From contig CABZJY010000004.1 in assembly GCA_902526175.1 (NCBI GenBank), positions 64,174 to 128,173 of the forward strand: 64,000 bases of DNA. Direction: 5' to 3'. How positions within the stretch are numbered: the first letter of the stretch is position 1; the number at the start of each line of letters is the position of its first letter. The position numbers and the translations under genes are program-made. This stretch comes from an uncultured Alphaproteobacteria bacterium (lineage in GTDB: Bacteria; Pseudomonadota; Alphaproteobacteria; Methylaequorales; Methylaequoraceae). Of this stretch, positions 1,559 to 22,071 are shown in pieces. Below the pieces are notes generated by a model. That model ran no database searches, had not been told where the DNA came from, and was given only the letters and a program-made list of their open reading frames with translations.

Positions 1559-4041
1559 CTTTTTTCTAAACTCTTAATAATAAATGGAAGTACTACTAAG
1601 CAGTTAAACAGAGTCATTAATAAACTCAAAAATAATAAGATCCCCATCGAAGATGTTCCAGAATGATTAGAAAGTGCTAAAGTTGAAAATGATCCTATTG
1701 TTGTTAAACCACTAAATATTACTGCATTAGGAGTAGAACTTTCCATTAGCTTTTTATATGAATTATTACTTCTATATCTCTTTAATATAAATATAGTGTA
1801 GGACATACCAAGACTGAAAATCAAAGGGAGTGCAATCATGTTAGCAAAATTCAAATTTATAGAGAATACTGACATCAATAAAACTGTTAGTGGAACTGAT
1901 ATAAAAATTGGCAAAAAACTTAATAATAAATATTTAAAACTTTTAAAAACTACATAGCAAAAGATACTCAATATTGACAAAGTGATAATTAAAGCGGTAA
2001 CAAATGATTTAATTACAACTTTACCTGCCTCTTCCTGAATAACAGGCATTCCAGTGGCATTTGGATAAACCTTTAAAACATTATTTACAAAATTACTTAA
2101 ATTATTTTCTTTTAATGTAATTTCATTAGGGTAAATTTCTATTCTTTTAAATTCATTTTCTGCAATATATCTCTTTTGAAAATAATCTGGGATTTCATTT
2201 TCATTAATGGGTTTTAAATTTATGAAGCTATTTATGTTATCCACTAGTTTACTAAAACCACTAAACCATAATTCTTCAATCGAATTTAATTTATCTTCAT
2301 CTAACTTATCTATATTTTGAAATAGATATTCAGGAATTTTACCGTTCTTATCATAATCAGAATTTTCTAAAGATTTCAAAAGATTTTTTAATCTTTCAAA
2401 TTCATTAATATTTGAATAAAATTGGTTATTATTTTTTGGGCTAAGTAAAAATTTCAAATGTATTAAGTCCTCATCTAGAGTCTCTGCTTTATACAAATCC
2501 TCAATTGAAAAAACTGATTCAACTTCAAAAATACTATCAATTTCATCTATTTTTTCTTTTTTAAAATCTTTAGCAAATACAGATATTTTATAATCTGAGG
2601 ACGGATCTTTATCTAGTAATTTTAAAGCTAATTTAACTGACTGACTTTCTTGATCTTTTAATTTAAGTGGATCTGAATCAAAATTTATATTTCTGTATGA
2701 AAATAATGCGACAATTATTATTAAAATAAAAAAAGAAATTGTAATAGTTTTTTTTTTTAAAAGAATATCTAATAGATTTATAAGATTACCATTAAACAAA
2801 AAGGTTGTTTTCTGATTTTTAAATGCGTCAAAGTTTAAAAGTAATGAGGGCAACAAAAAGATGTTTGTTACTATACCTACTAGTACTCCAATCGTTGAAA
2901 CTAATCCTAATTCAGATAAACCTATATATTCTGTTGGTACAAATGACAAAAAACCAATAATCGAGGTTGTGCCAACTATTATTATTGATCGTGAAATATC
3001 TTTTATAGAAGATATAACATTTTTTGTTTTGTAGGTTTTTATCTCTCTCATCCTTAATGATAATTGAATACCAAAATCAACAGAAATTCCTATAAATAAG
3101 ACTGCAAACGCAACAGATATCATGTTCAAAGAACCAACCGTAACTGCGATAATTCCAAGTGTTATACTTAAACCGACAAAAATAGTAATTATTAGAGATG
3201 CTATGTAAGAAATATTTCTGAAAGCAATCCATAATAAAGCTCCAACTATAAAAATGCTAAACAAGGATGCCTTTAAAGCACCGTTAGTCACAGAATTTAA
3301 TTCTTCGTAGTCAAGAATTTGAGAGCCAGTAAAGTTAATTTCTATTTCTGAATTGTAATCTTTTATTTCATTTAAAAAAACATAGAAATCTGAAAAATTA
3401 TTTTTTTCTAAGTAATTTTTCGTAAATCCAAAAATGATAAAAATTTCATTACTATTATTAAACTCATTTTTCCAATTAATCTTTTCGGCATTATTAATTG
3501 AATAATTCATTTTTGTAAGAATTTCTAAAAATAAACTGATATCTGCTTTATTATTGATTGCTTGTTCAAATAAATTATTAAATCCAAATAATTTTGGATT
3601 ATTATTTATTTCTGTTAAAAAAGGTTGGAATTTATAAATTTTTTCTAACACATCATCTCTATTTTTTTCATTCAATAATTTAAATGCATTTTTTTTAAAA
3701 AAATTATCGATTTGCGGGCAAAAGAAAAAATTAAAGTTATCTGCTCTTTCTTGAAACTTCGCTAGTATATCTTTTGCGATAAACTCCAGCCTTTCATTAT
3801 TTTGGCTTTTTAAGACTATAATATTGTTATTACTTAGATATGGAAAAAGTTTTCTTAATTCATTTTGCTTTTTTTTAAATTCAGATTTTTCTGATATTAA
3901 GCTGTCAGTTGAAGAATTAATTTGAATATTATTTAAAAAAAAATTCAAAGATACAAATGTAAGGCAGAAGAAAATAAAAATATTAGATTTAGGGTAAATT
4001 ACGCTATAATAAATAAAAAAATTAACTATCCTTTTTAACAT
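1555..4041 (-). CDS. MMPL/RND-superfamily membrane transporter (HpnN-like lipid exporter family)
   Basis: Two ~6-helix hydrophobic bundles separated by large soluble loops, ~830 aa. Start moved to the ATG at 4041 (MLKRIVNFF..). The longer ORF-track start at 4188 would overlap the divergent gene at 4084. Confidence 0.7.
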   Translation of the reverse strand: MLKRIVNFFIYYSVIYPKSNIFIFFCLTFVSLNFFLNNIQINSSTDSLISEKSEFKKKQNELRKLFPYLSNNNIIVLKSQNNERLEFIAKDILAKFQERADNFNFFFCPQIDNFFKKNAFKLLNEKNRDDVLEKIYKFQPFLTEINNNPKLFGFNNLFEQAINNKADISLFLEILTKMNYSINNAEKINWKNEFNNSNEIFIIFGFTKNYLEKNNFSDFYVFLNEIKDYNSEIEINFTGSQILDYEELNSVTNGALKASLFSIFIVGALLWIAFRNISYIASLIITIFVGLSITLGIIAVTVGSLNMISVAFAVLFIGISVDFGIQLSLRMREIKTYKTKNVISSIKDISRSIIIVGTTSIIGFLSFVPTEYIGLSELGLVSTIGVLVGIVTNIFLLPSLLLNFDAFKNQKTTFLFNGNLINLLDILLKKKTITISFFILIIIVALFSYRNINFDSDPLKLKDQESQSVKLALKLLDKDPSSDYKISVFAKDFKKEKIDEIDSIFEVESVFSIEDLYKAETLDEDLIHLKFLLSPKNNNQFYSNINEFERLKNLLKSLENSDYDKNGKIPEYLFQNIDKLDEDKLNSIEELWFSGFSKLVDNINSFINLKPINENEIPDYFQKRYIAENEFKRIEIYPNEITLKENNLSNFVNNVLKVYPNATGMPVIQEEAGKVVIKSFVTALIITLSILSIFCYVVFKSFKYLLLSFLPIFISVPLTVLLMSVFSINLNFANMIALPLIFSLGMSYTIFILKRYRSNNSYKKLMESSTPNAVIFSGLTTIGSFSTLALSNHSGTSSMGILLFLSLLMTLFNCLVVLPFIIKSLEKS

Positions 4042-5766: not shown

Positions 5767-7734
5767 ATGTTTAGTAAAAGTAAGAAAAAAGAATTAACTT
5801 TGATGGCTAACGCAATCAGGAGTCTCACTATAGATTCGGTAGAGAAAGCAAATTCTGGACACCCTGGTATGCCTCTTGGAATTGCTGATGTTGCAACCGT
5901 ATTATTTAGTTTTTTCTTAAAATTTGATCCTGAATACCCAAAATGGCCTGATAGAGATAGATTTATTTTATCTGCTGGACATGGATCAATGCTACTTTAT
6001 GCACTTTCATACTTAGTTGGGTATAAAGATAGTTCACTTAATCAATTAAAAAAATTTAGACAGCTTGGAAGTAAAACTGCTGGCCATCCAGAGTATGGCT
6101 TATTAAAATGTATAGAAACCACAACTGGACCTCTAGGGCAAGGACTTGCTAATGCTGTTGGAATGGCATTATCGGAAAGTTTATTAAATTCTATTTATGG
6201 GAAATCAATTGTTAATCATAAAACTTACGTTATTGTTGGAGATGGATGTTTAATGGAAGGAATTTCTCAAGAATCAATCTCAATTGCTGGACACCTTAAA
6301 CTAAAAAATCTAATTGTAATATTTGATAATAATGGTATTTCGATAGATGGTCCAACAAGCCTAGCGTCATCTGAAAATCATATGTTGAGATTTAAATCTT
6401 GTGGTTGGGATACAATCGAAATTGATGGCCATAACTTTGACGAAATATTTAACGCATTTAATAAAGCAAAAAAGAACCTAAAACCAACTTTTATTAGTTG
6501 TAAAACTACAATAGGATTTGGATCACCAAATAAATCAGGTAAATCTTCCTCACATGGATCACCTTTGGGTCAAGATGAAGCTATTGCTACTAGGAATAAT
6601 CTTAATATTTTAGAATGGAAAAACTTCAAGCTACCAAAAAAAGTATTAAATCTTTGGGCAAAGTGCTCTAAAAAAGGCAATAGGGAAAGAATCAATTGGG
6701 ATAATAGGCTAAATAAAAGTAAAAAAAAAAATATATTTCTTAGACAAATTAAGCCTTTGCGGTATCTTAGAAATAAAATTTCAAAGGATTATTTAAGAAA
6801 GATTCTAGAAGAAAAAAAACCTGAAGCTACAAGGAAATCTTCACAAAATTCAATAGAAATACTTTCTCAAAGTATAAAAAACTTTTTAGGTGGCTCAGCT
6901 GATTTAACAGAATCAAATTTAACAAAGGTTAAAGCCTCAAAAGTATCTGGGAAAAAAATTAATTATATTCATTATGGGATTAGGGAACATCTAATGGCTG
7001 CTGCTATGAACGGTATTTCCTTACATGGAGGATTTATACCTTATGGAGGTACTTTTTTAATTTTTTCTGACTATTGTAAAAATGCTATAAGATTATCGGC
7101 ATTAATGAAGCAACAAGTTATCTACGTTTTTACACATGATTCTATCGGATTAGGTGAAGATGGCCCAACTCATCAACCTGTAGAACAATTAGTTGGACTA
7201 AGAGCAATTCCAAATTTATTAGTTTTAAGACCGTGTGACTCAATTGAAACATTTGAATGTTGGGAATTAGCGCTAATAAATAATGATAAACCTTCATGCT
7301 TAATTTTATCCAGACAAGGCTTACCCCTTATTAGGAATGATATCAAAACGAATGAATGTAAAAAGGGCGGCTATTTCATTGAAGAAAACAAAAATTCTAA
7401 ACTAACACTTTTTGCGAGCGGGTCAGAGGTAAGTCTTGCCTTAAAAGTTTACCAATTACTAAAGAAAAAAAAAATTTTATCAAATTTGGTTTCTATGCCC
7501 TCCATTGAATTATTCGAGAGTCAAAGTCAATTATATAAAAATAAAATTTTAGGAAAAAATCCCAGAGTTTTTATAGAGGCTGGTGCTTCAATGAATTGGT
7601 ATAAATTTAAAGAAAAAAATGATATTATTATTGGTATAGATACATTTGGGGAGTCAGGGAAAGGAAATGAAGTTATGAAACATTTTGGATTCGATGAAAA
7701 TTTAATTTTAAACAAAATTTTAGATAAAATTTAA
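5767..7734 (+). CDS. tkt: transketolase
   Basis: 655 aa with motifs SGHPG, GDGCLMEGIS and THDSIGLGEDGPTHQP. Confidence 0.95.
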   Translation: MFSKSKKKELTLMANAIRSLTIDSVEKANSGHPGMPLGIADVATVLFSFFLKFDPEYPKWPDRDRFILSAGHGSMLLYALSYLVGYKDSSLNQLKKFRQLGSKTAGHPEYGLLKCIETTTGPLGQGLANAVGMALSESLLNSIYGKSIVNHKTYVIVGDGCLMEGISQESISIAGHLKLKNLIVIFDNNGISIDGPTSLASSENHMLRFKSCGWDTIEIDGHNFDEIFNAFNKAKKNLKPTFISCKTTIGFGSPNKSGKSSSHGSPLGQDEAIATRNNLNILEWKNFKLPKKVLNLWAKCSKKGNRERINWDNRLNKSKKKNIFLRQIKPLRYLRNKISKDYLRKILEEKKPEATRKSSQNSIEILSQSIKNFLGGSADLTESNLTKVKASKVSGKKINYIHYGIREHLMAAAMNGISLHGGFIPYGGTFLIFSDYCKNAIRLSALMKQQVIYVFTHDSIGLGEDGPTHQPVEQLVGLRAIPNLLVLRPCDSIETFECWELALINNDKPSCLILSRQGLPLIRNDIKTNECKKGGYFIEENKNSKLTLFASGSEVSLALKVYQLLKKKKILSNLVSMPSIELFESQSQLYKNKILGKNPRVFIEAGASMNWYKFKEKNDIIIGIDTFGESGKGNEVMKHFGFDENLILNKILDKI

Positions 7735-7736
7735 AA

Positions 7737-8933
7737 ATGATGATTAACCTTAGAAAGAGTTTTTTAGACTCTCTTGAGTTTGTAAATAATAAAACAGCTA
7801 TTTTACGCATTGATTTAAATTTACCAATTGTTGACGGAAAAGTTTCAGACTTCACTAGAATGGATAAAATTTTGCCTACTATAAAAGGTATTTTAGATAG
7901 AAATGGTAAAATTATAATAATATCTCATTTAGGAAGACCTAAAGGGATTAATAATAAAGAACTTTCATTGAAACCACTACTTCCATTTTTAGAGGAAAAA
8001 ATTGGGTCAAATATAACATTTTGCAACGAAGATATTTTTGGAAAAAAAATTGAAAGACTAATAAAAAAAATGATCCCGAAGGATATTTTATTATTAGAAA
8101 ATATTAGATTTTATCATCAAGAAGAAGAAAATGATTTATCATTTTCAAAACGACTTGCAAGTTTTGGTGATATATTTATTAACGAGTCTTTTTCTACTTC
8201 ACATAGAAATCATTCTTCAATATCAGGAATTGGGACGTTTTTACCAAGCTTTCCCGGTTCATTATTTGAATTTGAAATTAAAAATCTTAGTAAAATATTT
8301 AGAGACTCAAATAGAAAAACAGTAGCAGTTTTAGGAGGTGCTAAAGTATCTACAAAACTTAGTCTTATTCATAATCTTGCAAAAAAATTTGACAAAATTC
8401 TTATTGGTGGTGCAATGGCGAATACGTTTTTAGCTTCTTTAGGTATTGATATAGGTAATTCTATTAAAGAGTCTAAGTTAGAACAAGATGCTAAGCAACT
8501 ATTGAATGACTTTAAGGGAAAAATCATTATTCCAGATGATGTTATTGTTGTAAACTCAGAAAAACCTGATTCAAATCTAACTATTAATGTTGATAGTTTG
8601 AGCGGTTCAGAAAATGTAATTATGGACATAGGCCCTAAAACTAGAAAAAATTTTTATAATATTATTAGTAAATCAGAAATATTATTATGGAATGGACCTT
8701 TAGGATTTTTTGAAAAAATACCTTTTGATAATGGCAGTAACTATGTTGCTTCCGTAGTAAAAGTTATGTATTCAAAAAAATTTTTTTCAGTCGCAGGTGG
8801 TGGAGACACAATTTCTTGTATAAAAAACTCTGGATTCTATGAATTTTTCTCTTTTATCTCAACAGGCGGAGGTGCATTTCTTGAATTAATCGAAGGAAAA
8901 AATTTACCAGGTATTGAGATTTTAAATAAGTAG
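7737..8933 (+). CDS. pgk: phosphoglycerate kinase
   Basis: 398 aa with RIDLNLP, SHLGRPKG, STGGGAFLE. Confidence 0.95.
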   Translation: MMINLRKSFLDSLEFVNNKTAILRIDLNLPIVDGKVSDFTRMDKILPTIKGILDRNGKIIIISHLGRPKGINNKELSLKPLLPFLEEKIGSNITFCNEDIFGKKIERLIKKMIPKDILLLENIRFYHQEEENDLSFSKRLASFGDIFINESFSTSHRNHSSISGIGTFLPSFPGSLFEFEIKNLSKIFRDSNRKTVAVLGGAKVSTKLSLIHNLAKKFDKILIGGAMANTFLASLGIDIGNSIKESKLEQDAKQLLNDFKGKIIIPDDVIVVNSEKPDSNLTINVDSLSGSENVIMDIGPKTRKNFYNIISKSEILLWNGPLGFFEKIPFDNGSNYVASVVKVMYSKKFFSVAGGGDTISCIKNSGFYEFFSFISTGGGAFLELIEGKNLPGIEILNK

Positions 8934-14704: not shown

Positions 14705-14983
14705 ATGTATATAAGAATAGTAAATGTAAAATTTGCTTCAGAAATTGAAGCTGATGCCATGCATGCTTTTGCAGAGCATGAACTTATAAATAAGTTACCT
14801 GGTATATTGTCAGTAGAGAATGTAAGGATATCAAAATTACATAGTATTGTTATCAACAAATTTGACTCTCAAGAGTCAGCAGAAAAATCAAAAGAAATTA
14901 TTATAAATAAAATGAAACAAAATCCTAATATTAAGATAGAAGTTTATGAGGGTAAGAGATCATTTATCAAAGAAAAATCATAG
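14705..14983 (+). CDS. small hypothetical protein, possibly ferredoxin-fold (ABM/Dabb-like)
   Basis: Intact 92-aa ORF. Only a weak resemblance in size and pattern. Confidence 0.35.
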   Translation: MYIRIVNVKFASEIEADAMHAFAEHELINKLPGILSVENVRISKLHSIVINKFDSQESAEKSKEIIINKMKQNPNIKIEVYEGKRSFIKEKS

Positions 14984-14986
14984 TTT

Positions 14987-15790
14987 TTATTGACAAGGTT
15001 CAATAAATACTTTCGATTCTAACGATTCGTTACCATTATAATTTAGTTTTATACCTTTAATAATTGAAGCATCTAAAAAATCAAAACCAGAATTAATTCT
15101 TATATATTTATCATCAACACATTTTTTGTGAGATGGGTCAAAACCTACCCATCCAACTTCTTTAAGAAATAACTCTCCCCATGCATGTGTAGCATTTTCT
15201 GAAGCATTTAAATCATCATACAAGAAACCATTAACATATCTCGCTGGAATATCACAATACCTTGCAGCAGATATCAATATATGAGCATAATCCTGACAAA
15301 CACCCTCTCCTTGCTCTATTGCTTCTCTTGAACTAGTTGATGTTGAAGTTGACCCACTAACATATTTGATTGAGTTAGATACACTAAGATTTAATTCATG
15401 AGCAAATTCAATTAAGTTTCTTTTTTTAATTTTTTTTGTTAAATTTTCTATCATCTTACATGGAAGTGTTAAGTTTGTATTTCTTAAAAAACATAAAGGA
15501 TTAACCTTTTCTGACAAACCCTTCATTATACCTGAAAGGTCTTTTGTCTTAACAATTCCTTTAGACGTAATTTCTAATTCTCCGCTAAAATTTTTATTAT
15601 AAATATTAAGTATTTTATGACCTAATCCATCAATATGCGATTCAACAATTTTACCACTATTACAATTAATTTCCCATTCCATAATTTTTTGATTTTCGCA
15701 CTGTGTGGGATATAACTTTACACACTGAATCAATTTCGGAACCTCTGTACTATATTTATATAATGTTTTGTGATTTACTTTTATTATCAC
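14987..15790 (-). CDS. transglutaminase-like cysteine peptidase-fold protein
   Basis: Putative Cys-His-Asp triad context: GVCQDYAH .. ATHAWGE .. GFDPSH. The start overlaps the alpha-E gene stop by 4 nt. Confidence 0.85.
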   Translation of the reverse strand: MIIKVNHKTLYKYSTEVPKLIQCVKLYPTQCENQKIMEWEINCNSGKIVESHIDGLGHKILNIYNKNFSGELEITSKGIVKTKDLSGIMKGLSEKVNPLCFLRNTNLTLPCKMIENLTKKIKKRNLIEFAHELNLSVSNSIKYVSGSTSTSTSSREAIEQGEGVCQDYAHILISAARYCDIPARYVNGFLYDDLNASENATHAWGELFLKEVGWVGFDPSHKKCVDDKYIRINSGFDFLDASIIKGIKLNYNGNESLESKVFIEPCQ

Positions 15791-16746
15791 TCTTCAGTTC
15801 CAAAAAAATATTTCTTTTCTAAATTTGAATATATTACGTTTATATCTTTAATAAACGATCTTAAAAATTCATGTAATCCAATATTAGAAATTTCGTTTGC
15901 ATTCAATTTTTTTAAATCCCTATACATTAACTTTACTTGTGATTTAGCTTTAGTTTTCTGTTTATAAAATTTACATAATCGTTCTAAATGATGATTAATC
16001 TTTTCCACAGAAAAAATTAATGAACGAGGACATGTCATATTCAATATTAAAAAGTCAATAATTTTTATATAATTAATTTGTTCTTCACCATATGCCCATT
16101 TGAACGCTCTAAAAGATGAAATGGACCTCAACATCATACTCCATTGAAAATTATCAACCTCGCTTCCTACATAATTCACACTTGGCAATAATATAAAGTA
16201 TTTAACATTAATTATCCTTGCAGTGAAATCTGCTCTTTCAAAATAGGTTCCTAAAATTAAAAAATCATAACCATCATTAATCAATTGCGTATTTAGTATT
16301 GTTCCACGAATAAGATTTACTTGCCTTTTTACCCATTCAATAATTTCTGGTAATTCTTTAAGAATATTTTTTGTTGATCGAGTATTCGATTCAAGATCAT
16401 GAAATGTTGAATTAATTGCATTCCATACCTCAAGAGTTACTGCTGTTCTAACCATTCTGATATTTTCCCTTGCATTTTTAATACAATTTTTGATAGATGA
16501 AGGGTTGTTTGTATCAAACAATAAAAACGAAATAATTTTTTCTTTTGTAATTTTGTGGTTTTGTTGAAGATATGTTTCTTTAATTCCAGAGGTTTCTAAA
16601 ATTGATTCCCACTCATTAATATACCCTGATTTAGTATTTGGAATAAGTGATATTCTGTATCCTACTTCTAAAAGTCTAGCCAATGAATCTGCTCTTTCAA
16701 TATATCTTGCAGACCAAAATAAATTTTCAGCTGTTCTACTTAACAT
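15787..16746 (-). CDS. alpha-E domain protein (DUF403 family)
   Basis: The N-terminus MLSRTAENLFWSARYIERA is the hallmark of alpha-E proteins that follow circularly permuted ATP-grasp genes. Confidence 0.85.
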   Translation of the reverse strand: MLSRTAENLFWSARYIERADSLARLLEVGYRISLIPNTKSGYINEWESILETSGIKETYLQQNHKITKEKIISFLLFDTNNPSSIKNCIKNARENIRMVRTAVTLEVWNAINSTFHDLESNTRSTKNILKELPEIIEWVKRQVNLIRGTILNTQLINDGYDFLILGTYFERADFTARIINVKYFILLPSVNYVGSEVDNFQWSMMLRSISSFRAFKWAYGEEQINYIKIIDFLILNMTCPRSLIFSVEKINHHLERLCKFYKQKTKAKSQVKLMYRDLKKLNANEISNIGLHEFLRSFIKDINVIYSNLEKKYFFGTEE

Positions 16747-16749
16747 ATC

Positions 16750-18156
16750 TTACTCATTTATTACCCAAGTATCCTTTACTCCACCACCTTGTGAAGAATT
16801 TACAACTAATGATCCTTTTTTTAAAGCTACTCTTGTTAACCCACCACTTACTAACTTTGTTTTCTTAGCGCCAACTAAGCAAAATGGTCTTAGGTCAACA
16901 TGGCGAGGGGATAATTCCTTTTTTGAAAAAATTGGTACTGATGATAAATCAAGAATTGGCTGAGCAATATAATTACTTGGGTTAGCTTCAATTTTTTTCT
17001 TAAAAACTTCAATCTCCTTTTTTGATGATTTACTACCTATTAGTAATCCATAGCCTCCTGATCCATGAACCTCTTTTACAACTAATTTATGTAAATTATT
17101 TAATACATATTTCTTTTCATCAGCTTTAAAACATCTCCATGTTTTAACATTATCTAAAATAGCTTCTTCACCTAAGTAAAACTTAATTATTTCGTGCATA
17201 TATGCATAAATAGCCTTATCATCAGCCACACCGGCTCCAGGAGCAGAACAAATGTTTAGATTACCGGATTTATATGAATCAAATAATCCAGGCACACCTA
17301 TTAAAGAAGTACTATCAAATGATATAGGATCAATAAAATTATCATCAATTCTTCTGTAAATAATATCTACTTTTTCTGGACCTTTTGTTGTTTTCATATA
17401 TGTAATATTTTCATCAACATATAAATCTGGACCTTGAACAAGCTCAACACCCATAAGATCAGCTAAAAAACTATGTTCATAATAAGCACTATTAAAAGAA
17501 CCTGGAGTTAGAATTACAATCTTAGGTTCATTTTCGCACTTAAGAGGTGTTAATGTTTTTAAAATTTCAAGTAAATAAGTTGGATAGTTTTCAACTGTTT
17601 CAATTTTGAGTTTTTCGAATAATTCTGGAAACATTCTCATCATAATTTCTCTGTTCTCAATCATATAGGATACCCCAGATGGTGTCCTACAATTATCTTC
17701 TAAGATTTTAAAACTTTTATCGTTTATCCTAATAATGTCTGATCCAATAATTGGACTATAAATATTTTTGGGCACTTTAAAACCAACCATTTTAATTTCG
17801 TAAGCTGGATTTTTAAATATTAAGTCCTCAGGAATAATTCCTGCCTTAACAATTTCTGCAGTGTTATATATATCGTTCAAAAAAGCATTAATTGCTAGTG
17901 CTCTTTGAATTACACCCTTTTCAATAGTTTTCCATTCCGATGATGATAAAATTCTTGGGAACATATCGAAAGGTATTAGTCTCTCGGTAGAGTCAAAATT
18001 ATTATATACTGAAAAAGTAATGCCTATTCTCTTAAATAAGCTCTCTGCCTCATTTTTTTTTTTTACAATGACATTCTCAGGAAGTGATTTGGCCCAATCA
18101 ATAATTTGATTGTAAGGTTTTCTAACCTTAGAATTTTTATAAACTTCATTAAACAA
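16750..18156 (-). CDS. circularly permuted ATP-grasp (type 2) amidoligase-family protein
   Basis: 468 aa of the family usually found with alpha-E and transglutaminase partners. The only in-frame start after the upstream TGA is TTG at 18156. Confidence 0.8.
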   Translation of the reverse strand: MFNEVYKNSKVRKPYNQIIDWAKSLPENVIVKKKNEAESLFKRIGITFSVYNNFDSTERLIPFDMFPRILSSSEWKTIEKGVIQRALAINAFLNDIYNTAEIVKAGIIPEDLIFKNPAYEIKMVGFKVPKNIYSPIIGSDIIRINDKSFKILEDNCRTPSGVSYMIENREIMMRMFPELFEKLKIETVENYPTYLLEILKTLTPLKCENEPKIVILTPGSFNSAYYEHSFLADLMGVELVQGPDLYVDENITYMKTTKGPEKVDIIYRRIDDNFIDPISFDSTSLIGVPGLFDSYKSGNLNICSAPGAGVADDKAIYAYMHEIIKFYLGEEAILDNVKTWRCFKADEKKYVLNNLHKLVVKEVHGSGGYGLLIGSKSSKKEIEVFKKKIEANPSNYIAQPILDLSSVPIFSKKELSPRHVDLRPFCLVGAKKTKLVSGGLTRVALKKGSLVVNSSQGGGVKDTWVINE

Positions 18157-18194
18157 TTTTTTATACTCATATCAGAAGAGGGAGAGAGACTTAG

Positions 18195-18245
18195 AATGCG
18201 TTCCTTCGGTGTCTAACCTACTTCCGACCATAAGGTTGAACGTTT
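18195..18245 (-). promoter_or_regulatory. glutamine riboswitch (glnA RNA motif) candidate
   Basis: Minus-strand RNA: AAACGUUCAACCUUAUGGUCGGAAGUAGGUUAGACACCGAAGGAACGCAUU. P1 is CGUUC/GAACG, and there is a hairpin ACC-UUAU-GGU. The signature strings CGGAAGUAGG and ACCGAAGGAACGC are recalled from memory of the published consensus. It forms a GC-rich island in an AT-rich spacer. Confidence 0.75.
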
Positions 18246-18250
18246 TATAA

Positions 18251-18279
18251 AGCTTATTATTAAAATAATTAAAAATCAA
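18251..18279 (-). promoter_or_regulatory. candidate sigma70 promoter for the riboswitch transcript
   Basis: Minus strand TTGATT-N17-TAAGCT. The predicted start falls at the base of riboswitch P1. The -10 element is weak. Confidence 0.3.
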
Positions 18280-18306: not shown

Positions 18307-20034
18307 TTAAAATTTTTTATTTGTTAACCAAATACTCTGATAAGGTAATAAAGTAAAATCTCCAGATATATCTTTGACAGTTTTTTTACTTAAAATATCA
18401 TACCAACTGTTTGTTGCAATTAAGTTAATTTCAAGCAATGAAATTTTTTTCTTTTTTTTTGATAGATTACTAATACAGAAAATACTTTGGCTTCTATCCA
18501 AACTTTGTCTCCATATACCGAACAAATATATTGGGAGTTGTAATGTGAACTGTGTAGCATTAGGGTGAAAAGCAGGCTGTTTTTGTCTTAATAATATTAA
18601 TTTTGTAATTGAAGAGTAGACTTTACTATTAAGAGAATTTTTTTTTTCTAGAAGCCTTTTAATTTCCTCGAAATTCCAATTTCGTCTATTAATTGATCTA
18701 TTCGATTTAGTAAGTTTGAATTTTACGATATCATTTTTAGAACCTAATAAATTTTGAATATAAATTGCTGGAATTCCTTCCATTGAAAGTAATATTTCAT
18801 GAGCTAATAAAAAACGTTTTATATTGAAGTTATCTTTTCCTGAATACGTATTTTTTAAAGCATCTAATAATGTAGTATTGACCTCATATACGGTCTTTTT
18901 CTTTTGTGATATTCTGTATGTCAGATGTGCCCCAGAATTTTGTAAAGTACTTATAAATTTTTCTAATTCATTATTAGGTAAAATACCCTCTAATGGACGT
19001 AAGCCTATTCCATCATGTGTTGATAAAAAATTAAGATATGAATTACCAAATTGTGCTGGTGGCATACTTCTAGACCATTGCTTTAAATAAGTACTATTGC
19101 CAGATATAACTGCATGAACTAATAAGGGTGCTAAAGAAAAATTATATATACAATGCGCTTCGTTATTATTCCCAAAATAACTCAAATTTTCATGGCTTGG
19201 TATATTTGTTTCAGTTATGATTAGACAATTACCTGAATAAAACTCAACTAAAAGTCTTATAAGTCTTATTATTAGATGGGTTTCTGGTAGATTAATACAT
19301 TTTGTATCTTCTTCCTTCCAAAGAAAGGCCACAGCATCTAATCTTAAAGCTTTTGTACCTTTATCAAGATATAATTTAATAACTTCCAAAAAATAAATTA
19401 AGACTTTTGGATTCTTAAAATTAAAGTCTACTTGGTCATGACTAAATGTACACCATACAAATTCATTTTTACCGTCTACCTTTACCTTCTTTGATAACTC
19501 AGATGAGCGAGGTCTTACTACTTTTGAAAATCTACTGAAGTTTTTCTTACTTGAAATAAAAAAATCTGACCCAGGTTCAGTTTTATTTAAAAAATTTTTA
19601 AAAAGTTGATTTTCAGTTGAGCAATGATTGATCACCAAATCACTCATAATTTTAAATTTTGATGATAACTTTGAAAAATCATTCCAATTTCCATGTTCTT
19701 TTTTAATTTTTTTATAATCTTTAACAGCAAATCCATCGTCAGAAGTATATGGATAAAACGGCAGAATATGAATAAATGAAAAATTTTTACAAAATTTATT
19801 TAGAAAACTATTTAGTATCTTAAAATTATTTTGTTTTTGATCAATGATTGAATCTGCATAAGTAATTAAAAAACAGTCTTTTTCATCCCATAGTTCTTTA
19901 CTTACCTTTTTATTAGAATACCTTGAGAAAATTTTTTTTATTTCACCAGATAAAGTCTTTATCTCTTTTTGACTATAATTTTTGTATATTGAGCTAAGAT
20001 AATTTTGTAAGGTTTTTAAATTTAATTGATTCAT
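18307..20034 (-). CDS. GH13 sucrose-phosphorylase-like glycoside phosphorylase (candidate glucosylglycerate phosphorylase)
   Basis: 575 aa with FLITYADSI, ILPFYPYTSDDGFAVKDY, DLVINH and LRLDAVAFLWKE (nucleophile Asp region). The substrate is guessed from the gene neighbourhood. Confidence 0.7.
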   Translation of the reverse strand: MNQLNLKTLQNYLSSIYKNYSQKEIKTLSGEIKKIFSRYSNKKVSKELWDEKDCFLITYADSIIDQKQNNFKILNSFLNKFCKNFSFIHILPFYPYTSDDGFAVKDYKKIKKEHGNWNDFSKLSSKFKIMSDLVINHCSTENQLFKNFLNKTEPGSDFFISSKKNFSRFSKVVRPRSSELSKKVKVDGKNEFVWCTFSHDQVDFNFKNPKVLIYFLEVIKLYLDKGTKALRLDAVAFLWKEEDTKCINLPETHLIIRLIRLLVEFYSGNCLIITETNIPSHENLSYFGNNNEAHCIYNFSLAPLLVHAVISGNSTYLKQWSRSMPPAQFGNSYLNFLSTHDGIGLRPLEGILPNNELEKFISTLQNSGAHLTYRISQKKKTVYEVNTTLLDALKNTYSGKDNFNIKRFLLAHEILLSMEGIPAIYIQNLLGSKNDIVKFKLTKSNRSINRRNWNFEEIKRLLEKKNSLNSKVYSSITKLILLRQKQPAFHPNATQFTLQLPIYLFGIWRQSLDRSQSIFCISNLSKKKKKISLLEINLIATNSWYDILSKKTVKDISGDFTLLPYQSIWLTNKKF

Positions 20035-20042
20035 TGAAAAAA

Positions 20043-21257
20043 TTAAGCCTCATTATCTTTTTTAACGGTTTGTTTTAAATCTTCTAAAAAATTTGGCAAG
20101 GCTGTATCTACCCTACTCCATGTTGGTATATTCGGTGACTCCATAGGTGAATCTAAAAATGTTTGGCCCGCTATCATAATATTTTTAGCAAACAATTCAA
20201 CTGCTGTTTCCTCTTCATGTACATCAATTTCAAAGTTATTCATTAATGCGTCTTTTTTATAAATTTGAACAAAATCAAGTGCTTCCCTGTAATATGTTGC
20301 TTTAAGTGATCTAAAAATTGACATTGAAAAAGTCTCACCTTGAGAGGCTAACTTTCTTATAATTGCCTTAATGATGTCAATTGACATTTTTGAAAGACCC
20401 TTTGAAGTATTTGTCAATGAGATATCCTGGTGTTTATGATCATAGTTATCAGCTATATCAACTTGGCATAATCTGTTACCGGCATAGTTTCTATACATTT
20501 CTGAAAGAACTCCAATTTCTAAACCCCAATCATACGGTATTCTTATATCTTTCAACACTCTCCTTCTAAAAGAAAACTCACCGGCTAATGGATACCTAAA
20601 AGAATCGATAAAAGAAATATATTCTTTAAAACCAATAGTTTTTTCTAATGCTCTTAAAATTGGGGTAACTAGAAGTCTTGCAACTCTTCCTCTAACTTTT
20701 GTTTTTGAAACTCTAGGATAATAACCTTTGCAAAAATCAAAATTAAATTTTGGATTTGCTACTGGATAAACTAGTCTAGCAAGAAGATTTTTATTGTAAG
20801 TAATTATATCACAGTCATGTAATGCTATTGCTTCTGAATCACCAAGAGAAAGAATATAACCCATACAATACCAAACATTTCTACCCTTACCCATTTCTTG
20901 CGGGGCTAAGTTTTGCGACTCCAATTGCGAATTTAGTTTTTTTAGTCCTGGTCCGTCATTCCATAGTATTTCATGTTTTTGTGGAAGTTTAGAGAAAAAT
21001 TCCTTTGCATTTATAAATTCTTTTTTATTTGCTTGATCTAAACCAATAACAATATTCTTTAAAAATTTTACTTTAGATATTTCATCTATAATTTTTGGAA
21101 GAGCATTACCTTTAAGTTCAGTATACAAGGAGGGCAAAATTAAAGTAATAGGTCTATATTTACAAAAATCTACTAATTCCTTTTCTAAATCTTCAAAAGA
21201 TCTATTAGAAAAATTATGTAATGTAGCAACAATACCATTTTGATAGAAATCAGAAAT
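20043..21257 (-). CDS. gpgS: glucosyl-3-phosphoglycerate synthase-like GT-A glycosyltransferase (GpgS/MpgS family), proposed ATT start
   Basis: GT-A core with GKGRNVW .. ALHDCDI. The frame is open 43 codons upstream of the ORF-track TTG (21137) with no ATG/GTG/TTG. ATT at 21257-21255 lies 6 nt after AAGGAG (21269-21264). Confidence 0.65.
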   Translation of the reverse strand: MSDFYQNGIVATLHNFSNRSFEDLEKELVDFCKYRPITLILPSLYTELKGNALPKIIDEISKVKFLKNIVIGLDQANKKEFINAKEFFSKLPQKHEILWNDGPGLKKLNSQLESQNLAPQEMGKGRNVWYCMGYILSLGDSEAIALHDCDIITYNKNLLARLVYPVANPKFNFDFCKGYYPRVSKTKVRGRVARLLVTPILRALEKTIGFKEYISFIDSFRYPLAGEFSFRRRVLKDIRIPYDWGLEIGVLSEMYRNYAGNRLCQVDIADNYDHKHQDISLTNTSKGLSKMSIDIIKAIIRKLASQGETFSMSIFRSLKATYYREALDFVQIYKKDALMNNFEIDVHEEETAVELFAKNIMIAGQTFLDSPMESPNIPTWSRVDTALPNFLEDLKQTVKKDNEA

Positions 21258-22071
21258 ATTTTTCTCCTTTCAAAATATTTTCTATTGACTCTTTCCAACC
21301 TTCAGGAGCTGGTAATTTACTTCTAAAAATATTTTTATTTTTTAACGTTAAGTTTGTATTCTTTTTAGATTTTATGATACATGCGTAATCTGTAAGTTCA
21401 AGCATAGGGATATCATTTTCGCTATCACCAAGTGAAATCGATAAATAACGAGAGTCTATTATGTTTTTAATTTTAAAAAACTTTTTTAGTGCTACACCTT
21501 TGTTGTAATTATCTAAGATGTGTAAAAACCTCCCACCATCTAAAACTTCAAGTTTTTTATTTTGCTTTTTGACTTCATTAATAAACTCACTTCTTTTTTT
21601 TTCAGTATCTTCCCAATAGATTGGGTTAGAAAACTTTCTTAATTTACTCAAACTTATATCACTATCTTTAAGATTGGTAATTTTACCAATTTTTTTATTT
21701 GATAAATTATCGTAAAAACTAAATTTATATTTATTTTTTAAAAAGTTAAATTTTTCCTTAATTTTATTTGAATCAAATCTAGTTAATGGAAAACCAATAT
21801 GATTTTTATATTTAATAAATTTATACATCATTTCTTTTCCTTCAAAATATTTTAATGGAAAAAAAATACATGCTCCGTTTTCTGCAATAAATGGGAAATT
21901 AATATTTAAGTATTTATTGATTTGAGTTATTTCTTCATAGGTTTTACTTGAAACAAATATAATCTCAAAACTTGTGTCTAACTTGTTAATAAATTTCTTT
22001 AAAGTTCCAAATGAGTATGTTTTACGGTTTAAAAAAGTTCCATCCAAGTCTGAAAAAATTAAAAACTTCAT
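21250..22071 (-). CDS. HAD-IIB phosphatase, mannosyl/glucosyl-3-phosphoglycerate phosphatase family
   Basis: The DLDGTF nucleophile motif and GDSENDIPML motif are present. 273 aa, the size of YedP/MpgP-type enzymes. Confidence 0.75.
   Translation of the reverse strand: MKFLIFSDLDGTFLNRKTYSFGTLKKFINKLDTSFEIIFVSSKTYEEITQINKYLNINFPFIAENGACIFFPLKYFEGKEMMYKFIKYKNHIGFPLTRFDSNKIKEKFNFLKNKYKFSFYDNLSNKKIGKITNLKDSDISLSKLRKFSNPIYWEDTEKKRSEFINEVKKQNKKLEVLDGGRFLHILDNYNKGVALKKFFKIKNIIDSRYLSISLGDSENDIPMLELTDYACIIKSKKNTNLTLKNKNIFRSKLPAPEGWKESIENILKGEKYF

Follow-up and report, generated by a model that had tools for sequence, protein, structure and literature searches.

A type-1 glutamine riboswitch aptamer precedes the ATP-grasp, Alpha-E and transglutaminase-like gene triad in SAR11-type Alphaproteobacteria

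Type-1 glutamine riboswitches (glnA-motif RNAs) were described upstream of genes for the PII protein, glutamine synthetase, glutamate synthase (GOGAT), ammonium transporters (amt) and PMT1479 (PMC2864571), and the class was reported to contain cyanobacterial sequences together with unassigned sequences from marine metagenomes (PMC6212724). A second described system, the 'Anbu operon', was found to contain as its core a triad of genes for an ATP-grasp protein, an Alpha-E protein and a transglutaminase-like protein. A function in peptide synthesis or tagging was predicted for this triad (Iyer et al. 2009, as cited in PMC5666114, PMC6376114 and PMC3597751), and its role was still unconfirmed in 2017-2018 (PMC5666114; PMC6376114). 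The triad was not listed among the published glnA-motif gene associations (PMC2864571), and no paper linking a glutamine riboswitch to it was found in full-text searches that combined riboswitch with Pelagibacter/SAR11 or with transglutaminase. Here, the triad was found directly behind an aptamer of this class in a stretch of 64,000 nucleotides (nt) of the contig CABZJY010000004.1 (assembly GCA_902526175.1, positions 64,174-128,173 of the forward strand), which is hereafter called the window and has a G+C content of 30.6%. The arrangement is read as a self-contained nitrogen-status module, in which a promoter is followed by a type-1 glutamine riboswitch and a coupled three-gene operon that is turned off by glutamine and serves a ligation and hydrolysis cycle under starvation; a probability of about 0.5 is given to this reading.

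The aptamer of the window was found to match the Rfam model RF01739 over its full length (model positions 1-53 of 53) with 58.3 bits against a gathering score of 35 and an E-value of 2.8e-10 for the whole window. The glutamine-sensing RNA that an initial annotation of the window had placed upstream of the triad was thus confirmed as a member of the family. The aptamer contained the stems P1 (CGUUC/GAACG), P2 (ACC/GGU) and P3 (GGU/ACC) and the invariant cores CGGAAGUAGG and GAAGGAACGC, and in the cmscan alignment the conserved purine-rich core segments CGGAAGUA and GAAGG were present together with the C nucleotide 3′ of P1. The end of the aptamer was found 38 nt before the TTG start of the ATP-grasp gene. 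An alignment of 13 leaders was used for RNAalifold and for pairing counts, in which the partner strand slid out of register served as the control, and RNAalifold recovered exactly P1, P2 and P3 with an invariant core. Binding of glutamine by this RNA is predicted from the family match.

Relatives of the ATP-grasp protein were drawn from one genome per GTDB species (loci labelled L001 etc.), and 80 related triad loci were compared, the gene order being judged as far as each contig extends. The closest relatives (82-86% identity) were found in SAR11-type single-cell genomes and metagenome-assembled genomes (MAGs) labelled Pelagibacteraceae, 'Rickettsiales' or uncultured Alphaproteobacteria, and TARA metagenome contigs were found to contain an Alpha-E protein 97% identical to that of the window in the same gene order. 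The initial annotation had proposed a survey for glnA-motif RNAs or other nitrogen-regulatory sites before the triad. In this survey, the aptamer was located immediately before the ATP-grasp gene in each of the 12 SAR11-like species representatives (L001-L011, L020), in 5 of the 5 window-lineage contigs whose sequence includes the leader (with Rfam scores for L201 and L205 and the same aptamer sequence in all five) and in L023. Six other relatives contained a sigma-54 motif instead. The locus L023 belongs to 'Rhizobiales-LRMED-257', a 1.4-Mb MAG of a streamlined alphaproteobacterium whose ATP-grasp is 68% identical to that of the window. RF01739 scored 52-62 bits at the same position in L001-L011, L020, L023, L201 and L205, the number of related leaders in this score range being given as 17, and the distance from aptamer to start codon was 38-49 nt in the 12 representatives and in L023. 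The genes flanking the aptamer and the triad were variable among the loci, and therefore the leader plus the three genes is taken as the conserved entity.

The three genes of the window were found to be separated by a gap of 3 nt (ATP-grasp to Alpha-E) and an overlap of 4 nt (Alpha-E to transglutaminase-like), and the order ATP-grasp, Alpha-E, transglutaminase-like was kept in 80 of 80 related loci. The Alpha-E gene was directly 3′ of the ATP-grasp gene in all 79 loci that reach past the latter, the contig of L018 ending inside the ATP-grasp gene. The ATP-grasp protein matched CP_ATPgrasp_2 (PF14403, E 2.3e-152) and CP_ATPgrasp_1 (PF04174, E 7e-134), the Alpha-E protein matched PF04168 (E 3e-81), and the third protein matched Transglut_core (PF01841, E 3e-22) and Bact_transglu_N (PF08379, E 4e-9). 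The tightly packed conserved triad of the initial annotation was thereby borne out in its open reading frames (ORFs), spacing and Pfam families. The TTG start of the ATP-grasp gene aligned with the ATG of other lineages and with the GTG of five same-lineage contigs, and the start call is therefore considered sound. The non-ATG starts were peculiar to the window lineage, with TTG at 18154-18156 of the window and GTG in five TARA contigs (among L201-L207), all other lineages containing ATG; the leader of the window lineage was also found to lack a purine-rich Shine-Dalgarno sequence.

In relatives outside the aptamer-bearing group, a different nitrogen-linked signal was found at the same operon. 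A strict sigma-54 pattern, TGG(C/T)A(C/T)-N5-TTGCA, was scanned on both strands of 398 kb of low-GC locus sequence and was present upstream of the triad in L013, L014, L015, L017, L022 and L058, none of which contained the aptamer. The first base of the motif was found 27-28 nt before the ATG in the gammaproteobacterial L013, L014, L015 and L017, and the motif began about 119 nt upstream of the ATP-grasp gene in the Rhodobiaceae MAGs L022 and L058. These triad-upstream sites made up six of the eight strict matches listed, the summary line of the same output giving nine. The ATP-grasp gene of L023 follows a riboswitch, and its product shares 79-80% identity with its counterparts in L022 and L058, where a sigma-54 motif precedes the gene; closely related operons thus carry one or the other, which indicates a putative swap of regulators between them. 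In the window-type and SAR11-type loci, no sigma-54 -24/-12 motif (GG-N10-GC) was found within 350 nt upstream, and the triads of Rhodobacterales contained no sigma-54 or NtrC-type motif upstream by simple patterns.

The nitrogen response of the triad is already documented, if little noticed, in Pseudomonas and Burkholderia. In B. cenocepacia, the genes I35_5080-83 (DUF404/407, DUF403 and two transglutaminase-like genes) were among the most NtrC/sigma-54-dependent genes under nitrogen limitation, with log2 changes of -8.2, -9.4, -9.4 and -6.0 in an ntrC mutant (PMC5491218). In P. putida grown on nitrate versus ammonium, PP_2688 (ATP-grasp) was raised by 4.0 log2 and PP_2685 (Anbu) by 4.4 log2, about 16-22-fold (PMC8050072), and the PP_2688 promoter responded to nitrogen starvation (PMC8050072; Hervas 2008, as cited in PMC5666114). 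A nitrogen link of homologous clusters was also given in PMC5666114 and PMC6376114. The wiring to nitrogen status suggested by the initial annotation is supported because the aptamer-triad unit is conserved while its flanks vary, because sigma-54 motifs replace the aptamer in relatives and because homologues are induced by nitrogen limitation in published transcriptomes (PMC5491218; PMC8050072), and the link of the triad to nitrogen status is considered well supported. That the triad is unrelated to nitrogen, serving for example envelope cross-linking, defence or stress proteolysis beside regulatory associations that are coincidental, is held to be highly improbable. Such a role would agree with the lack of a known biochemical function, with the many roles of transglutaminase-fold proteins and with an Anbu-operon expression that was unchanged under several other conditions (PMC5666114); however, it would leave to coincidence three independent nitrogen-linked controls before homologous triads (glutamine riboswitch, sigma-54 motifs and NtrC dependence; PMC5491218, PMC8050072), the adjoining of the triad to a glnB-riboswitch-glnA cluster in L012, and the correlation of triad domain abundances with urea-metabolism domains in marine metagenomes (PMC3597751). 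The new element is the regulator, a glutamine riboswitch with an anti-aptamer platform in SAR11-type genomes and in one other streamlined alphaproteobacterium.

A promoter-like block was found immediately upstream of the aptamer, and TTG(A/C)TT followed by TATAAT/TAAGCT occupied the same position in each of 14 leaders taken from different loci, the block being identical in six window-lineage contigs. The block is proposed as a promoter from this conservation, and it would put the first transcribed base at about 18244, where the aptamer begins. A generic sigma-70 consensus scan did not list the block, no terminator was predicted between the GH13 gene (ending at 18307) and the aptamer, and SAR11 was reported to show little transcriptional regulation overall (PMC3870248). 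These points would suit an aptamer that is a passenger or relic exerting no control, the expression of the triad being constitutive and due, for example, to read-through of transcription out of the glucosylglycerate genes before it. This explanation appears very improbable, since the aptamer core was invariant and its distance to the start codon was kept across lineages with different upstream genes, the C/U tract complementary to the core was conserved too, and a switch of translation that acts in cis would also function on transcripts arising by read-through.

The expression platform between aptamer and start codon was found to contain a conserved competitor of the aptamer. An anti-aptamer hairpin can arise by base pairing of its C/U tract and the adjoining GAUAUGAG (to 18166) with P2 and the core of the aptamer (18235-18221), and the invariant core segment UCGGAAGUAGG was complementary to the downstream C/U tract in every leader. 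For the window leader, the minimum free energy (MFE) of the anti-aptamer fold was -20.6 kcal/mol versus -8.6 kcal/mol with the aptamer enforced; the aptamer state was modelled by enforcing the aptamer fold, and the exclusion of P1 by a soft penalty. The hairpin was the unconstrained MFE fold in 10 of the 13 leaders, and its advantage over the secondary structure of the aptamer alone was 2-15 kcal/mol. In the 13-leader alignment, 81.7% of the cells were paired in register versus 41-55% in the slid controls, C/U changes on the tract side preserved G-C or G-U pairs, and an A-to-G change in the window lineage preserved its pair as G-U. The tract was the only sense-strand intergenic tract of such C content found in the window. 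Among the features of the expression platform, the competing anti-aptamer structure has the strongest support, and both the cis position in a 5′ leader and a platform that competes with the aptamer are in keeping with membership in the RF01739 class. No intrinsic terminator was predicted in the leader, and the output is therefore likely to be translational control, or possibly Rho loading on the exposed C-rich tract.

In the proposed mechanism, the promoter would fire straight into the aptamer, and the leader would govern the translation of the translationally coupled ATP-grasp, Alpha-E and transglutaminase-like genes. In the absence of glutamine, the anti-aptamer hairpin would form and the C/U tract would be tied up, whereas with glutamine the aptamer would be locked and the tract released. 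In L023 and in most of the SAR11-type leaders, the released tract could find a partner in the purine-rich ribosome-binding region; being C-rich and G-poor, it could also serve as a candidate Rho-loading site. Glutamine would thus lower the expression of the operon, which would be on when glutamine is scarce, by the same OFF logic as in the NtrC/sigma-54 control of the homologous operon of Pseudomonas and Burkholderia.

For the direction of the switch, the balance tilts slightly towards an operon that glutamine turns off. The OFF logic is favoured because the homologous operons are induced by nitrogen limitation and because sigma-54 motifs are swapped in for the aptamer in sister lineages. The leaders point the same way in part. 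In L023, the tract CCUCUA has two possible partners, the aptamer segment AGUAGGU and the Shine-Dalgarno sequence UAGAGG, the two pairings being mutually exclusive, and in most SAR11-type leaders an anti-Shine-Dalgarno-like CUCUUUC can pair with GAAAGAG just 5′ of the AUG. Duplexes of the tract with the ribosome-binding site (RBS) of -6.5 to -11 kcal/mol were found in 10 of 15 leaders, and the modelled RBS accessibility was lower in the aptamer state for L001, L008, L010 and L011.

Several findings weigh against an OFF switch and against the module as a whole. No purine-rich RBS and no tract/RBS helix were found in the window lineage, L009 and L020, the window-lineage duplex reaching -2.6 to -3.7 kcal/mol, and the anti-aptamer hairpin of the window lineage extended to about 10 nt before its weak TTG or GTG start. 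The accessibility of the window-lineage RBS (-18 to +9) rose from 0.47 to 0.66 when the aptamer was enforced. The tract/RBS helix was paired in 68.5% of the cells versus 28-62% in the slid controls, which is not clearly better, and mononucleotide-shuffled tracts often paired equally well with the RBS; shuffle tests of tract/RBS and tract/core pairing are weak, as base composition alone yields pairing. The tract/RBS helix is not treated as established. The only characterised glutamine riboswitches, those of the gifB leaders, are ON switches (PMC6212724). The aptamer helices contained no compensatory changes in the closely related leader set, and their support therefore comes from the family model. 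The triad was found behind none of the 120 glutamine aptamers sampled from metagenomes, a sample that shows other targets of the class, such as gifB-like peptides, amt, type-III glutamine synthetase, gltB and glnA, not the frequency of linkage to the triad; the triad is therefore taken as a lineage-specific member of the regulon. For the protein part of the module, pull-downs in Yersinia found no stable complexes (PMC6376114).

The main competitor is an ON switch, as in cyanobacterial gifB. Glutamine would dissolve a hairpin that occludes the ribosome landing zone, and the leader exposed in this way would be free of structure and rich in C/U and A. Synthesis of the triad would then coincide with abundant glutamine, and its role would lie in nitrogen excess, such as a gamma-glutamyl or amide store, detoxification or modification of an assimilation enzyme. 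This alternative is regarded as possible and is held with tentative confidence. It would account for the rise in accessibility in the window lineage, to which L005 and L020 were similar, and for the leaders that lack the tract/RBS helix, and an ATP-consuming ligase would fit a synthetic role in the surplus state. Experiments then available were also taken by Weinberg et al. to suggest that glnA-motif and Downstream-peptide RNAs downregulate genes upon nitrogen depletion (PMC2864571). However, in P. putida and B. cenocepacia it is nitrogen limitation, not surplus, that induces the homologous triads (PMC8050072; PMC5491218), sigma-54 motifs stand in for the aptamer in sister lineages, and L023 and most SAR11-type leaders contain an anti-Shine-Dalgarno-like tract that is free only in the aptamer state. 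The cyanobacterial anti-RBS segment is moreover found immediately 3′ of P1, whereas the tract here is displaced by 10-12 nt in the downstream direction and has the aptamer core as its partner. Whether the triad has a storage-type or a starvation-type role is decided by the sense of regulation, and the gamma-glutamyl metabolite, nitrogen-storage peptide or enzyme modification suggested in the initial annotation are candidate products. A comparison of SAR11 paralogues whose nitrogen responses are known (amtB versus amt, glnA versus glnT; PMC3870248) was also tried for the ON/OFF question and set aside, the riboswitch-linked amt contigs lacking HTCC1062 neighbours by which the paralogues could be matched.

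Under the preferred OFF reading, the three proteins would carry out a ligation followed by cleavage. From family knowledge (Iyer et al. 2009, as cited in PMC5666114, PMC6376114 and PMC3597751), the ATP-grasp protein would convert a carboxylate to its acyl-phosphate and join this to an amine, the Alpha-E protein would be a specificity or scaffold subunit of the ATP-grasp protein or its acceptor, and the amide or isopeptide bond so formed would be the target of the Cys-His-Asp enzyme, by hydrolysis, transfer or deamidation. The target may be a peptide or protein (tagging and turnover, as in pupylation) or a small amide conjugate (as with glutathionylspermidine synthetase/amidase). An orthologue of the ATP-grasp protein in Yersinia was reported to release phosphate from ATP (PMC6376114).

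Residue conservation was examined in 81 sequences for the ATP-grasp protein and in 76 each for the Alpha-E and transglutaminase-like proteins. The ATP-grasp protein contained 178 near-invariant residues, and its closest relative in the PDB was 3N6X (E 1.5e-167), deposited as 'putative glutathionylspermidine synthase', a name that is the depositor's guess. The Alpha-E protein contained invariant E17-R18 and E170-R171. The transglutaminase-like protein contained the motifs GVCQDYAH, THAWGE and GFDPSH, and its residues Cys165, His202 and Asp218 had at most one exception among 76 homologues (32-67% identity) and aligned with those of PDB 3ISR, a putative cysteine protease (E 3.4e-12), which upholds the retained catalytic set seen in the initial annotation. 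A PDB sequence search gave no relative of the Alpha-E protein; its AlphaFold2 model was poor (pLDDT, the predicted local distance difference test score, 58.7, from a 36-sequence alignment of relatives 77-97% identical), and a Foldseek search of this model against the PDB gave nothing below E 0.3. That the substrate and role are undefined, as the same annotation had held, agrees with the structural papers of 2017-2018, with the lack of an NCBIfam naming model for any of the three proteins, and with solved relatives that are the structural-genomics entries 3N6X and 3ISR only.

The features of the locus are collected in Table 1.

Table 1. Coordinates of the features found at the locus, numbered from the first letter of the window.
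Feature	Position	Strand	Details
Type-1 glutamine riboswitch aptamer (glnA motif)	18195-18244	minus	Rfam RF01739
Promoter-like element	18251-18279	minus	TTGATT 18279-18274, 17-nt spacer, TAAGCT 18256-18251; from conservation
Expression platform	18157-18194	minus	C/U-rich, G-poor tract (pyrimidine run 18189-18174), then A-rich spacer to TTG
Circularly permuted ATP-grasp amidoligase gene	16750-18156	minus	468 amino acids, TTG start; Pfam
Alpha-E gene	15787-16746	minus	319 amino acids; Pfam
Transglutaminase-like Cys-His-Asp enzyme gene	14987-15790	minus	267 amino acids, GTG start; Pfam
Convergent 92-amino-acid ORF	14705-14983	plus	No Pfam or NCBIfam match; stop codon 3 nt from that of the transglutaminase-like gene
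GH13 sucrose-phosphorylase-like enzyme	18307-20034	minus	Glucosylglycerate-type set
Glucosyl-3-phosphoglycerate synthase (GpgS)	20043-21137	minus	NF040724, E 6e-97, below cutoff
MPGP-family phosphatase	21250-22071	minus	Glucosylglycerate-type set

On the 3′ side, the operon was followed by the convergent 92-amino-acid ORF and then by an AcrB-family gene. The ORF was kept in the window-lineage contigs, and in L010 it (80% identity) was found just upstream of the riboswitch instead. Upstream of the riboswitch, on the same strand, a glucosylglycerate-type gene set was present (18307-22071), and the GH13/GpgS pair was also found to adjoin the triad in L009, L016, L201 and L205. Glucosylglycerate is a compatible solute that is favoured when nitrogen is scarce, and its genes may be a second nitrogen-related neighbour of the triad.

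Other arrangements were found at loci that carry no aptamer before the triad. The 'Rhodospirillaceae' loci L016, L019 and L021, of the single-amplified-genome type, contained neither riboswitch nor sigma-54 motif and had in common AT-rich near-palindromes about 40-70 nt upstream of the ATP-grasp gene (TGCAACTTTGGTTTGCA in L016), possibly a third type of regulator site. In three gammaproteobacterial genomes (L015:2125-9257, L017:2263-8532, L013:1-174), the triad was apparently located inside the spacer of an rRNA operon. L015 and L017 contained, on one strand, 16S rRNA and tRNA-Ile(GAT), followed by the sigma-54-like promoter, the ATP-grasp, Alpha-E and transglutaminase-like genes, tRNA-Ala(TGC) and 23S rRNA; the 23S rRNA was matched in L015 only, the sequence of L017 ending just past tRNA-Ala, and L013 started with the same tRNA 3′ end. 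The sigma-54 motif of these loci ended 11 nt before the ATG, so that the mRNA would be almost leaderless. A second strict sigma-54 motif was found on the minus strand between the transglutaminase-like gene and tRNA-Ala (L015 at about 7495-7510, L017 at about 8263-8278), and in L015 it faced an 82-amino-acid ORF (7058-7306) with no NCBIfam match. In the alphaproteobacterial MAG of L012 (TMED62), glnB, a glutamine riboswitch (43.8 bits) and a type-I glnA were found on the minus strand (1643-3588), divergent from the triad and with tRNA-His in between. With this locus, the 'glnA-upstream' riboswitches of metagenomes, for which PMC6212724 gave the affiliation as unknown, can be placed in a taxon.

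The metagenomic sample comprised 120 aptamer loci and 797,841 bases (L081-L200). Most of its aptamers (e.g. L084, L090, L100, L116) were found to precede ORFs of 50-70 amino acids that end in ...RKEV.INGNGTSG and resemble the glutamine-synthetase-inactivating factors of the gifB/IF17 type, and others preceded unrelated small basic ORFs, possibly phage-derived. In a set of low-GC contigs (L139 at 3710-3822, L175 at 2475-2591, L187, L166, L127, L162, L092 and L156), tandem aptamers were present before ammonium transporter genes and before genes for type-III glutamine synthetase, the latter with a PII gene upstream, and single aptamers were present before genes for the GOGAT large subunit (gltB). 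The gltB leaders contained mutually exclusive hairpins, CACCAAACU/AGUUUGGUG versus UAGAGUUUG/CAAACUCUA. The leaders of amt, gltB and type-III glutamine synthetase use platforms unrelated to that of the triad leader.

Although crystal structures exist for several of its components, the function of the triad has been open since 2008-2009. A direct control exerted by the glutamine RNA would identify the signal inside the cell to which the triad answers, and this in a bacterium that has hardly any protein regulators; a simple in vitro handle is provided by the RNA, its ligand glutamine and a reporter. A non-canonical target is added to the glutamine-riboswitch regulon, and the riboswitch class is placed in SAR11-type alphaproteobacteria, where nitrogen sensing without PII and NtrBC is puzzling; SAR11 was reported to contain no glnB, glnD, glnK or ntrBC (PMC3870248). 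With a riboswitch, a sigma-54 motif or published NtrC control at one and the same operon in sister lineages, the triad offers a clean case of non-orthologous regulator replacement, and the pattern lends weight to a role of the triad in the nitrogen economy. A bolder proposal goes further: a glutamine riboswitch replaced NtrC/sigma-54 at the triad in SAR11-type bacteria, it switches the operon off through a so far undescribed anti-aptamer/anti-Shine-Dalgarno platform, and the triad is a core nitrogen-starvation effector, a minimal, proteasome-free analogue of pupylation in which peptides or proteins are tagged or amidated at the cost of ATP, with thiol-dependent cleavage, so that nitrogen is recycled. 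Taken in its entirety this proposal is rather unlikely; if it is true, such an effector would be at work in the most abundant heterotrophs of the ocean.

Among the described systems, the gifB glutamine riboswitch of Synechocystis (Klahn et al. 2018, PMC6212724) was found to have the same aptamer, with all strongly conserved core nucleotides including the C 3′ of P1, and both RNAs lie in a 5′ leader with no intrinsic terminator and presumably act on translation. The host, however, is here a SAR11-type alphaproteobacterium and there a cyanobacterium, and an enzyme operon is found downstream here, whereas a small glutamine-synthetase-inactivating factor is found there. The platform also differs, in that a C/U tract is found here at 10-12 nt past P1 and has the aptamer core as its pairing partner, and the sense of the switch may be opposite. 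The marine metagenomic glnA-motif RNAs (Weinberg et al. 2010, PMC2864571) belong to the same RNA class and were likewise found on low-GC contigs of marine heterotrophs; they precede canonical nitrogen-assimilation genes, often as tandem aptamers with long leaders, whereas the triad leader contained a single aptamer and a short platform of 38 nt. Cases of the canonical kind were recovered here in L012 (glnB-riboswitch-glnA), in L139, L175 and L187 (tandem before amt), in L127 and L162 (type-III glutamine synthetase) and in L092 and L156 (gltB). Structurally, the glutamine riboswitch of type 1 has reportedly been characterised by Ren et al. in 2015.

With the Anbu operon of Pseudomonas, Yersinia and Burkholderia (Iyer et al. 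2009 and Valas & Bourne 2008, as far as these are cited in PMC5666114 and PMC6376114), the locus was found to have in common the protein families, their order, the tight coupling and the Cys-His-Asp set, and both are nitrogen-linked (NtrC/sigma-54, PMC5491218; nitrate, PMC8050072). The Anbu gene (proteasome beta-like) and the second large transglutaminase gene were not found at the window locus, nor was Anbu found in the SAR11-type loci, and control is exerted here by a putative metabolite-sensing RNA and there by an enhancer-binding protein. Among the hypotheses on the Anbu operon, PMC6376114 cites protein tagging and attributes it to Iyer et al.

E. coli GspSA likewise combines an ATP-grasp amide ligase with a papain-like Cys-His amidase that is able to undo the bond. 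The two activities would lie here on separate proteins, with a transglutaminase fold instead of CHAP, a domain that was absent from all three triad proteins by Pfam, and with Alpha-E as an extra component; nothing at the window locus points to a glutathione or polyamine substrate. The mycobacterial Pup-proteasome system, which matters for amino-acid recycling under nitrogen starvation, is similar by analogy only, in that an ATP-dependent isopeptide ligase (PafA) is joined by a deamidating or cleaving enzyme (Dop). The ligase fold is ATP-grasp here and glutamine-synthetase-like there, and no gene for a Pup-like tag, a glutamine-synthetase-like ligase or a proteasome-like protein was found at the window locus by Pfam. 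GspSA and the ligase and deamidase of the Pup system are, by likeness of their paired activities, the closest working analogies of the triad, not systems to which it belongs.

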